IMG/VR virus record: IMGVR_UViG_3300047170_000095
Location: 1-38,008 of that record
Reading direction: 5' to 3' (one strand)
DNA: 38,008 nt
From: a virus
Shown here: in pieces, positions 11,102 to 11,712 of the stretch
Position numbering within the stretch: position 1 is the first letter of the stretch
Layout: every line of letters starts with the position of its first letter
The notes under the pieces: model-generated
What the model was told of the DNA's origin: nothing
Databases searched by the model: none
Seen by the model: only the letters and a program-made list of their open reading frames with translations
Position numbers and translations under genes: made by a program

Positions 11102-11254
11102 CAAAGTGGGGATAAGTCATTTCTGCTTATCTCTGCAATTTTATTTATAGTTGCAGATCGGACTATCGCATACGCTTTCGCGTCCTCTGGGTTTAGTCTC
11201 TCAGGCTGTATTTAAACTTGCCCCTTGTTACCCTGTCGGGCCTCCAAGTCAATT
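11102..11254 (-). mobile_element. Group I-like mini-intron B (about 153 nt)
   Basis: Minus strand reads AATTGACTTGGAG, CCC/GGG hairpin, AACAAGGGGC...GCCT, then GAGAGACTAAACCCAGAGG ACGCGAAAGCGT ATGCGA TAGTCC. Hairpins CTGCAA/TTGCAG and GATAAG/CTTATC follow, ending CCCCACTTTG. Confidence 0.6.
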
Positions 11255-11551
11255 ACCAAAGGTTTAATGGCCACTTGTCAAGATGGACACGGCTAGACGC
11301 TCGGATACCCAAGCTAACACCTTTTTTTATCTAGCCTAAGAGGGCGTGTTGTTCAACATAATCATTATTTATAGATCATCCTACAACTTCTATTTTTATG
11401 CTGCAAGTCTAGAACCCTCTTGATCCTGAAGGATCACCTGCTATTGATGATACACCCAGTTCCAAAAAAAGCCATTTGCGCCATCGATGATATCTCGCTG
11501 GGGCACTTGTGCCGGCGGCACTCTGTTACTTCTATTGACCCCTTGCAGCCA
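11255..11551 (-). other. Structured, stop-filled spacer between inserts C and B. It may hold a 24-nt micro-exon at 11255-11278.
   Basis: Its ends copy the exon flanks (..GTGGCCATTAAACCTTTGGT, and TGG..AGTAACAGAG). Long-range stems are CTGCAAG/CTTGCAG, AGAGGG/CCCTCT and GGCTAGA/TCTAGCC. Confidence 0.4.
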
Positions 11552-11712
11552 CAAGGCGGGGAAACCTCTTCGGATCTCCCTCTCATAGTTACCTATGAGA
11601 TCAGACTATCGCATACGCTTTCGCGTCCCGTGAATTTAGTCGTTCAGGCTGCACACTTTCGTTGCTTGCCCCTTGTTGTCCTTAAGCTGCCTTAAGGAGA
11701 TCCAAGTCAATT
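11552..11712 (-). mobile_element. Group I-like mini-intron C, core (about 161 nt; may extend 3' into the spacer)
   Basis: Same architecture as B. The variable hairpin is CCTTAAG/CTTAAGG. The core is GACTAAATTCACGGG ACGCGAAAGCGT ATGCGA TAGTCT, followed by hairpins CTCATAG/CTATGAG and GGGAGATC/GGTTTCCC. Confidence 0.6.

Follow-up and report, generated by a model that had tools for sequence, protein, structure and literature searches.

A core-less insert with its own splice-site guide, tethered to a full group I intron in a phage capsid gene: a candidate satellite intron

The DNA analysed here, positions 1-38,008 of the virus record IMGVR_UViG_3300047170_000095 (the window, 38,008 nt), carries on its minus strand a major capsid gene of the N4-gp56 type, starting with an ATG at 11954. 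A flagged piece of 611 nt (11102-11712) lies inside this gene, which has four interruptions in a stretch of about 1.2 kb (11747-10560): three group I introns, in transcriptional order C, B and A, and an insert, D, situated between C and B. This report deals with the architecture of the gene and above all with D, a candidate satellite intron. All positions within the capsid gene refer to the minus strand.

As a first-pass query we used a concatenated translation of the capsid gene, made before the final splice sites were fixed. It matched 1055 proteins, the uninterrupted homologues being mostly 322 amino acids long. Among the 120 matches listed, nearly all had 313-326 amino acids (one 342) and 72-78% identity to this query (BLASTP), and in a nine-sequence MAFFT alignment the same query was 83-89% identical to homologues. 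Several sources label these matches "N4-gp56 family major capsid protein". The NCBIfam model TIGR04387 was matched by homologue P0003 with 72.7 bits (cut-off 60), a score that belongs to this homologue and not to the reconstructed product of the window itself. No match was found when cultured phages were searched with the capsid protein (tblastn) or in a PDB sequence search, and an AlphaFold model of the protein was unusable (pLDDT 32).

In the alignment the homologues read, in this order, ...GNSGID, PPAQVPQRDIIDAQMAFFGTGCIINEQVILQDQEG, VLAWVSERLAVAM, RQAEDL...GMDRF and GTGPVRS..., and every one of these residues is encoded in the window, including those within the interval between C and B that an earlier interpretation of this DNA (the sequence-only reading) had taken for a spacer. 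The junctions were set where the uninterrupted homologues require them. Exon 1 (11954-11748, 207 nt, M1 to GNSGID69), placed by homologue alignment and splice reconstruction, ends in CATCGAU, which pairs with the guide of intron C (11747-11519, 229 nt). Exon 2 (11518-11414, 105 nt) encodes PPAQVPQRDIID, 13 codons in the +1 frame (AQMAFFGTGCIIN) and QVILQDQEG, and is followed by insert D (11413-11321, 93 nt). Exon 3 is a micro-exon of 38 nt (11320-11283), comprising VLAWVSERLAVS and the first two bases of a Met codon and encoding the residues VLAWVSERLAVSM; its 3' end, TGTCCAU, pairs with the guide of intron B (11282-11087, 196 nt). Exon 4 (11086-10898, 189 nt, RQAEDL...GMDRF), intron A (10897-10560, 338 nt) and exon 5 (10559-10130, 430 nt including the stop) complete the gene. 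Joined without the four inserts, the exons amount to 969 nt, i.e. 322 codons and a stop, which is the length of the homologues. Splicing of D would be expected to join CAAGAGGGU to GUGUUAGC at the exon 2/exon 3 junction, giving a tryptic peptide that spans QDQEGVLAWVSER.

Introns C and B are 236 nt apart, and exons 2 and 3 around D make up the interval. Among 15 unique sequences the PPAQVPQRDIID segment differs synonymously, with one exception at Ile-79 (ATC/ATA to GTA, a conservative Ile-to-Val change), and the micro-exon likewise varies by synonymous change in intron-bearing relatives. This mode of evolution indicates that the segments between the introns are translated, and we regard the reconstructed exon/intron map as near certain.

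Introns C, B and A share long identical blocks in a three-insert alignment (AATTGACTTGGA, AACAAGG, the GAAAGCGTATG.GAT..TC region and AGTAACA), and a motif scan of the loci in the set at that stage yielded 26 distinct short copies of this intron type. In each of the three an internal guide forms helix P1 with the end of the upstream exon, whose terminal U wobble-pairs with a G of the guide: CATCGAU/GUCGAUG in C, UGUCCAU/GUGGCCA with one mismatch in B, and ACAGGUU/GACCUGU in A (guide at 10887-10881). The P10 helices are CGGCG/CGCCG in C, CUUGAC/GUCAAG in B and UACCA/UGGUA in A, and that of C covaries across loci. The guide of C occupies 11738-11726 (P10 part CGGCG at 11738-11734, P1 part GTCGATG at 11732-11726), followed by the 5' strand of P3 at 11720-11714; the corresponding parts of B are CTTGAC (11282-11277), GTGGCCA (11274-11268) and the P3 5' strand at 11262-11256. 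All three introns end in G (C ...GAGUG, B ...AUUUG, A ...GAUAG), the longer 3' ends of C and B reading ...AGTAACAGAGTG and ...AGTAACAATTTG.

When 21 cores of the family were folded together with RNAalifold, P3, P4, P5, P6 and P8 were recovered, with compensatory changes at 15 of the 21 pairs. P3 comprises 7 bp, each pair being represented by 3-10 compensated sequences, and P5, P6 and P8 covary too. P3 encloses an invariant GACU that can pair with AGUC after P8, which would give the P3/P7 pseudoknot layout. Interleaved with P3 in this way, the two strings resemble the classical R and S elements; both are invariant, so that no covariation can be counted for them. A P3 enclosing the 5' strand of P7 is the hallmark pseudoknot of group I introns. 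A covariance model made from the family cores (R1) found exactly three cores in the window, namely B (121.7 bits), C (121.1 bits) and A in two halves (23.0 and 17.4 bits), the core of A being interrupted by its open reading frame (ORF) in the R1 match; in relatives R1 finds dozens of cores. The ORF in question, 55 codons at 10812-10645 in the P6 region of intron A, encodes two CxxC pairs (MQEICKNCKN...CLFCNRN...) and had no match among the Pfam and NCBIfam families; its product could be what is left of an endonuclease, or a small zinc-ribbon protein.

Two relatives of these introns also occur in cultured phages. Roseobacter phage CRP-118 carries an unannotated copy (R1 107.8 bits, L129 2497-2612, record positions 35071-35186), which fills the gap between two coding sequences that are both annotated as ribonucleotide reductase and are probably a single gene that the intron divides. 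Over 76 nt, the 3' half of intron B is 78% identical to an intron in the tail gene of mycobacteriophage BAKA, itself a weak R1 match (17.7 bits), whose splicing was demonstrated by reverse transcription PCR (RT-PCR; PMC3706429). C, B and A are best described from their sequences as conventional group I introns of one family, and they are predicted to be self-splicing, indirectly because the related BAKA intron is spliced in vivo.

With map and family in hand, the sequence-only reading can be judged. It had described C and B as a tandem pair around a 297-nt structured, non-coding spacer with duplicated exon flanks, the whole 611 nt being removed as one twintron-like unit or leaving a 24-nt micro-exon (IQVAIKPL, 11278-11255). 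The strings on which it was built are indeed found on the minus strand, either at the positions it gave or beside them: AGTAACAGAG (11530-11521), TGGAGTAACAATT (11101-11089), GTGGCCATTAAACCTTTGGT (11274-11255) and GTCGATGTAAAACCCGCGAT (11732-11713), as well as the stem halves CTGCAAG (11548-11542) and CTTGCAG (11407-11401), AGAGGG (11420-11415) and CCCTCT (11344-11339), GGCTAGA (11336-11330) and TCTAGCC (11297-11291), and GCTTGG (11314-11309) and CCGAGC (11304-11299). Stops occur in all three frames of 11551-11255, and the similarity of the inserts is real and far above chance, reflecting a large intron family. However, the boundaries were misplaced. The true introns are 11747-11519 and 11282-11087, the P10 of C (CGGCG/CGCCG) pointing to a 3' splice site at 11519/11518, and the idea of a 297-nt non-coding spacer therefore fails: the interval consists of the 3' end of C, the 105-nt exon, D, the 38-nt micro-exon and the 5' end of B. 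Three of its four long-range stems look like functional RNA helices.

The supposed duplicated flanks are parts of the introns. GTGGCCA and GTCGATG are guides and AAACC-N7 is the 5' strand of P3, the "copy of the exon-1 end" (GTSGMYRTWAAACCnnnnnnT) being guide plus P3 5' strand, with P4 (AATTGACTTGG) coming next; what was taken for a "copy of the sequence after B" (AGTAACAG/A) is the conserved 3' tail of the family. The 24-nt micro-exon falls into the guide and P3 region of B, where P3 covaries with its partner strand, and the actual micro-exon is 11320-11283. Splicing from the 5' site of C to the 3' site of B would remove 47 conserved residues (PPAQVPQRDIID...QDQEG and VLAWVSERLAVSM) that are kept in more than 1000 uninterrupted homologues and change synonymously in relatives. 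Translated exons of 105 and 38 nt separate C, D and B, so the arrangement is not a twintron. We consider this model virtually untenable. Its notion of two homologous group I introns lying close together, with a micro-exon and a composite nearby, was sound, except that the partner of B is D and not C.

Mapping by tblastn revealed insertions after at least 18 different residues in this capsid gene family, some of its genes contain four or five intron cores, and 414 truncated N-terminal capsid ORFs are present in the protein collection. The family is an intron hot-spot, with an unusually dense landscape for a phage structural gene.

Insert D begins after a U and ends in G at 11321. Its guide (11350-11339) is complementary to the ligated junction AGAGGGU-GUGUU: GCCCTCT matches the last bases of exon 2 (AGAGGGU) and AACAC the first bases of exon 3, the pair right at the 5' splice site being U.G. 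When D was shuffled 20,000 times, a 12-mer able to pair completely with the junction arose just 59 times. All D elements found contain the guide (more than 20, with lengths of 36, 44, 45, 48, 49, 56, 93, 325 and 950-980 nt), and at one locus, L022, the P10 part of the guide shows a compensatory double change (exon GTGCTA and guide TAGCAC versus GTGTTA/TAACAC elsewhere). A metagenome pattern scan for the guide returned one chance match and one contig already in the set.

A catalytic core was not detected in D (11321-11413; no R1 match with filters off). The versions of 36-56 nt leave no room for a core, and in the long versions an endonuclease ORF takes up the element. D is accordingly not classed as an autonomous group I intron. 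At the D site of L012 and L013 lies an insert of about 950 nt with the same ends and an ORF of 292 amino acids with two LAGLIDADG motifs (in L012 LIDGDG and IMDTDG; Pfam LAGLIDADG_1 27.3 bits, cut-off 23.1); intact LAGLIDADG genes in the long forms encode 292-295 amino acids. The D of the window corresponds to the first 43 nt and the last ~46 nt of the 978-nt D of L019, and its remnant MIMLNNTPS* to the last nine codons of the endonuclease ORF. Judged from this correspondence, it is a deletion derivative of a LAGLIDADG-bearing element of about 950-980 nt.

The 5' end of D (CTTGCAGC, 11407-11401) is also complementary to the last hairpin of intron C (GCTGCAAG, 11548-11542), both on the minus strand. 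In a second C/D type (L022, L029) AGCTGC/GCAGCT(T) takes the place of this complementarity, which amounts to one independent contrast only. It may represent a long-range contact across exon 2, or linkage.

The 3' tail of D contains the strand GGCTAGA (11336-11330), whose partner TCTAGCC (11297-11291) lies towards the 3' end of the micro-exon, directly upstream of the stretch that enters P1 of the following intron; the micro-exon additionally holds the hairpin GCTTGG/CCGAGC. We refer to the helix between tail and micro-exon as the tether. At least 10 tether helix sequences were found across loci, all of them complementary, with shifts in both sequence and register, among them GGCTAGA/TCTAGCC, GGCGAGA/TCTCGCC, GCATGG/CCATGC, GCTTGTC/GACAAGC, GCTTGG/CCAAGC, GCATCGCTA/TAGCGATGC, GCATAGCTA/TAGCTATGC, GCATAGATA/TATCTATGC, TTGATGCAT/ATGCGTCAA and GCTTGGCG/CGCCAAGC. 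The mean energy of the duplex between tail and exon was -14.2 kcal/mol for cognate pairs compared to -10.0 for non-cognate pairs and -8.3 for shuffled tails. In the RNAfold minimum-free-energy fold of the end of exon 2, D and exon 3, the P1 of D and the tether are both predicted (z = -3.0).

In every D with examinable downstream sequence, a full-core intron follows 38, 47 or 53 nt after the element, at one of three sites. This type of downstream intron is found without D, too (L009), and D is present without intron C in L113, L114, L121 and L125.

A second element of the same design was detected at a different site. L123, and also L124, carries a core-less insert of 61 nt after AQMAFFG (minus strand, about 5070-5010), unrelated in sequence to D. 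Its guide, AGCCAGU plus GCCGAA, is complementary to UUCGGU-ACUGGCU, and a 9-bp tether arises from the pairing of its tail GTTGATAAC with GTTATCAAC within a 26-nt exon (written out as a tail/exon pairing, GUUGAUAAC with GUUAUCAAC). This exon abuts a full intron, to whose P1 its end belongs. From its sequence the insert is a second satellite type. The L123 gene additionally carries a 36-nt D and a 22-nt micro-exon.

The architecture of a satellite, i.e. guide, tether and terminal G without a core, is well supported by these comparisons. The covarying tether and the constant position of a complete D ahead of a full intron lead us to infer that the core of B splices D, and catalytic dependence on B is the most likely mechanism. 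Taken together, we consider it fairly probable that D is a core-less, group-I-derived satellite intron removed by the ribozyme of intron B. The order of D's P1/P10 helix, the tether and the P1 hairpin of B resembles P1-P2-P2.1-P3 of larger group I introns, and the tether would set the P1/P10 of D on the core of B as a P1-P2-P2.1 arrangement does. In a first step, the B core would dock the P1 of D and guanosine would open the 5' splice site of D. In a second step, the same core would accept the terminal G of D and ligate exon 2 to exon 3. With D gone, the 3' end of the micro-exon would be released for the P1 of B, which could then splice itself, joining exons 2, 3 and 4. An engineered group I ribozyme, the "spliceozyme", removes a core-less intron in E. 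coli (PMC4094466).

Alternatively it might be that any free ribozyme of the family, such as excised C, B or A, splices D in trans. Transcription of the one gene supplies three to five related cores, engineered ribozymes do work in trans (PMC4094466, PMC2532722), and the complementarity between D and the last hairpin of C changes on both sides together in the second type. A covarying tether, however, places D beside the downstream intron every time, D occurs without C but never without a downstream full intron, and the independent 61-nt satellite of L123 is tethered likewise. Splicing in trans thus appears improbable.

Several points weigh against splicing of D by the core of B. The removal of D is deduced from sequence alone. 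The loci are related and linked by homing, and the counts given above are partly non-independent. The guide and P1 sequence of D are invariant, so covariation supports only its P10 and the tether. The Rfam model RF00028 (Intron_gpI) gave no match at its gathering score or at E<=10, an Rfam match being a detection aid and not a defining property of group I introns. Exon 2 contains a +1/-1 shift with stops in both frames. Furthermore, an in-frame ATG or TTG stands at the end of 13 of the 14 D elements compared (AAG followed by GTG in the window), and translation re-initiation may give a capsid protein in two pieces.

The last point leads to a different reading, in which D is not spliced: translation would stop at an early TAA of D (..QDQEG-SRLAA*) and restart at the GTG or ATG of the micro-exon, guide and tether being relics or regulators of translation. 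A stop codon follows a few codons into every D element, and in the window GTG is the first codon of exon 3. Genes split by the insertion of endonuclease genes are familiar from T4-like phages. A Shine-Dalgarno-like AGG, which precedes the real genes here, is however absent before these starts, and the candidate start sits within the loop that the tether closes. Moreover, full introns of the family usually end in (A/T)TG as well. A relic would not be expected to keep a guide of 12-13 nt, a compensatory P10 change and at least 10 tether variants in elements as short as 36 nt, and genomes that also carry the exon 2 insertion described below would produce three pieces, one of them of only ~25-28 amino acids. 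Because of the lacking Shine-Dalgarno-like sequence and the preservation of guide and tether in 36-nt elements we rate this reading below splicing by the B core and consider it unlikely.

The shift in exon 2 concerns two positions that were recognized by comparison with intron-less DNA. An extra G (x) is found at 11482, directly after CATCGAU, and about 40 nt downstream the G of the Glu-95 codon is missing (AAT_AG, 11443-11441), the 13 codons AQMAFFGTGCIIN between them being in the +1 frame. Frame 0 runs into the TAG at 11443-11441 and the +1 frame into a TGA at 11436-11434. The four splices alone can therefore not yield a full-length protein. A continuous capsid protein would be expected to contain DIIDAQMAFFGTGCIIN(E)QVILQDQEG. 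The position of the missing G, between N94 and E95, is occupied by a full intron in L120.

A further reading is a dead gene: a defective allele, its exon 2 frameshifted and its D unable to be spliced, would travel along with a homing cassette while co-infecting phages supply the missing function. The stops that exon 2 has in both usable frames would fit such a history, and so would the pattern of divergence, since the cassette of C, exon 2, D, exon 3 and B is 83-99% identical between genomes compared to 70-83% for the flanking exons 1, 4 and 5, as co-conversion predicts. But the arrangement recurs in many near-complete contigs of 35-41 kb from unrelated samples, the exons, including the shifted block, change almost only synonymously, and the reconstructed coding sequence has exactly 322 codons. 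We regard a dead gene as very improbable.

The insertion at x was found only in genes with intron C, and a pattern scan for the context of the extra G outside them gave chance matches only. The heptamer preceding it, CATCGAU ((C/A)ATCGAU in relatives), has the sequence with which exon 1 ends and can therefore pair with the guide of C, and the GCGC that follows can pair with the GCGU of that guide (CAUCGAU-G-GCGC against guide 5'-GCGU GUCGAUG). In the 15 x-bearing genes the insertion always comes after U and ends in G, being G, TG, AG, TAG, TTAG or TAAG; the GCRC that follows can pair with the P10 part of the C guide, and GCAC occurs only where the guide has a U opposite. The flanking codons are ATC GAT in 15/15 x-bearing genes versus 32% of 77 intron-less genes, and the next codon is GCG or GCA in 15/15 versus 43%. 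In L020 intron C is present and the x site is empty. Nine other intron-C genes with TG, AG, TAG, TTAG or TAAG at x lack a downstream deletion (0/9). Among window-type genes the shifted block contains six distinct substitutions, all of them at third positions of the wild-type frame.

According to one reading the ribozyme of intron C would excise the 1-4 nt at x. The extra G follows a U, ends in G and has both flanks paired to one guide, as does a substrate of trans-excision splicing (TES), and single-G excision by engineered ribozymes has been achieved (PMC2532722). The competing reading is a gene split at x, with a stop codon, an AGG and an ATG for internal restart: four of the six variants place (T/A)AGG five bases ahead of a conserved ATG, and two of the variants are stop codons. 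The missing G of the window type is cleanly explained by neither of the two readings. More broadly, the group I core might serve as a shared splicing machine for core-less satellites of the D and L123 types and, in addition, for "nano-introns" of 1-4 nt (the G at 11482; TG, AG, TAG, TTAG and TAAG in relatives). The latter would keep only the terminal G and could borrow the guide of C because the upstream CAUCGAU repeats the end of exon 1. This generalization is tentative and, in our view, possible but rather doubtful.

Other causes of the exon 2 shift were rejected. Identical lesions in L012, L013, L019, L021 and L023-25, from other samples, exclude an assembly error. Recoding of the in-frame amber codon does not apply either, as 3 of 49 ORFs terminate at TAG, the following gene overlapping one of them, and the tRNA scan found no tRNA gene and hence no suppressor tRNA. 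For ribosome hopping or programmed frameshifting at the extra G there are no slippery or matching take-off/landing codons, and an extra length of 1, 2, 3 or 4 nt among relatives does not fit one recoding signal. The whole shifted block of 42 or 45 nt is not a mini-intron, as no boundary rule fits the window, L019 and L023 together and the block evolves synonymously in its own frame. Use of the extra G as another 3' splice site of C, by which PPAQVPQRDIID would be left out, is at odds with the mostly synonymous change of those 12 codons. L016 (NCBI JAWVGY010036155.1, protein P0058) has an uninterrupted capsid gene without exactly the 13 codons AQMAFFGTGCIIN; this segment of the capsid can apparently be lost.

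Introns in phage capsid genes and phage genes with several introns are already known (PMC3706429; Twort, as cited in a passage of PMC11878797). In orf142 of phage Twort, three self-splicing group I introns reside in one structural gene and exon skipping takes place (Landthaler & Shub 1999, cited there). As in the capsid gene described here, one phage structural gene is crowded with related group I introns that only short exons separate, and a ribozyme is able to use the splice site of a neighbouring intron, as is proposed here for B. Each Twort intron reportedly has its own catalytic core, exon skipping being a side reaction. D, in contrast, has no core and is tethered to the next intron, and cross-use would here be obligatory. 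Cluster J mycobacteriophages also contain group I introns in virion structural genes, namely in the capsid gene of LittleE, with a LAGLIDADG-like ORF inside, and in the BAKA and Optimus tail genes, splicing being established by RT-PCR and protein sequencing (PMC3706429). Unlike the gene in the window, these carry one presumably self-sufficient intron per gene, with no micro-exons and no core-less partner.

The closest functional likeness is to the spliceozyme and to TES, in which a core removes a core-less segment defined by P1/P10 pairing and a terminal G (PMC4094466; PMC2532722); the single G removed by TES is what the extra G at 11482 would need. Both are laboratory constructs that act in trans with the guide on the ribozyme, whereas D has its own guide and a tether in cis. 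A natural core-less satellite tethered to a full group I intron was not found in the literature searched, and we know of no natural system of the spliceozyme or TES kind comparable to D.

Composites of adjacent group I modules exist in fungal mitochondria as side-by-side and "zombie" twintrons, and passages of a review describe the side-by-side type as two cores with no exon between them, spliced as modules or as one unit, and the group III introns of Euglena as degenerate group II derivatives that have lost most catalytic domains (PMC8393795). In the capsid gene, unlike in twintrons, a translated 38-nt exon lies between the core-less and the full module. Group III introns are presumed to depend on outside help. 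The series of D elements with an intact LAGLIDADG gene, deletion derivatives (325 and 93 nt) and minimal forms (36-56 nt) recalls the Goddard-Burt cycle, in which the endonuclease gene decays once it is fixed, as far as it is outlined in the same review (PMC8393795). Unlike in that cycle the decay of D halts at guide, tether and terminal G and does not proceed to loss, which suggests that the remnant is still processed.

On both sides of the capsid gene further features were observed. A YrlA-like Y RNA at 12240-12340 on the plus strand (Rfam RF02553, 37.5 bits, E = 5e-6, below the gathering score of 69) lies about 320 nt upstream of a plus-strand gene (12660-13967) for a TROVE/Ro60-vWA protein of 435 amino acids (Pfam TROVE E = 8e-12, vWA_Ro60 3e-7), which is kept beside the capsid gene in L001 and L015, too. 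Together they form a phage-borne Ro60/Y-RNA module. Directly after the capsid gene, and at the same position in all relatives, follows a minus-strand gene for 375 amino acids (9001-10128) with weak, sub-threshold matches to endosialidase beta-barrel and E1_FCCH (both E = 4e-5); its product may decorate the capsid or form a fibre.

Group I introns are considered self-contained, each with its own ribozyme. As gene callers fragment these capsid genes and Rfam misses the intron family, the capsid genes of a widespread group of metagenomic phages of about 40 kb are systematically mis-annotated. If the proposed dependence of D on B is true, it would be the first natural case known to us in which one group I core splices a second, core-less intron, and the laboratory reaction of the spliceozyme and of TES would have a natural counterpart. 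The system would then also provide a tractable bacterial-virus model of autonomous introns degenerating into dependants of a shared catalyst, in parallel to the decay proposed for the origin of spliceosomal introns.

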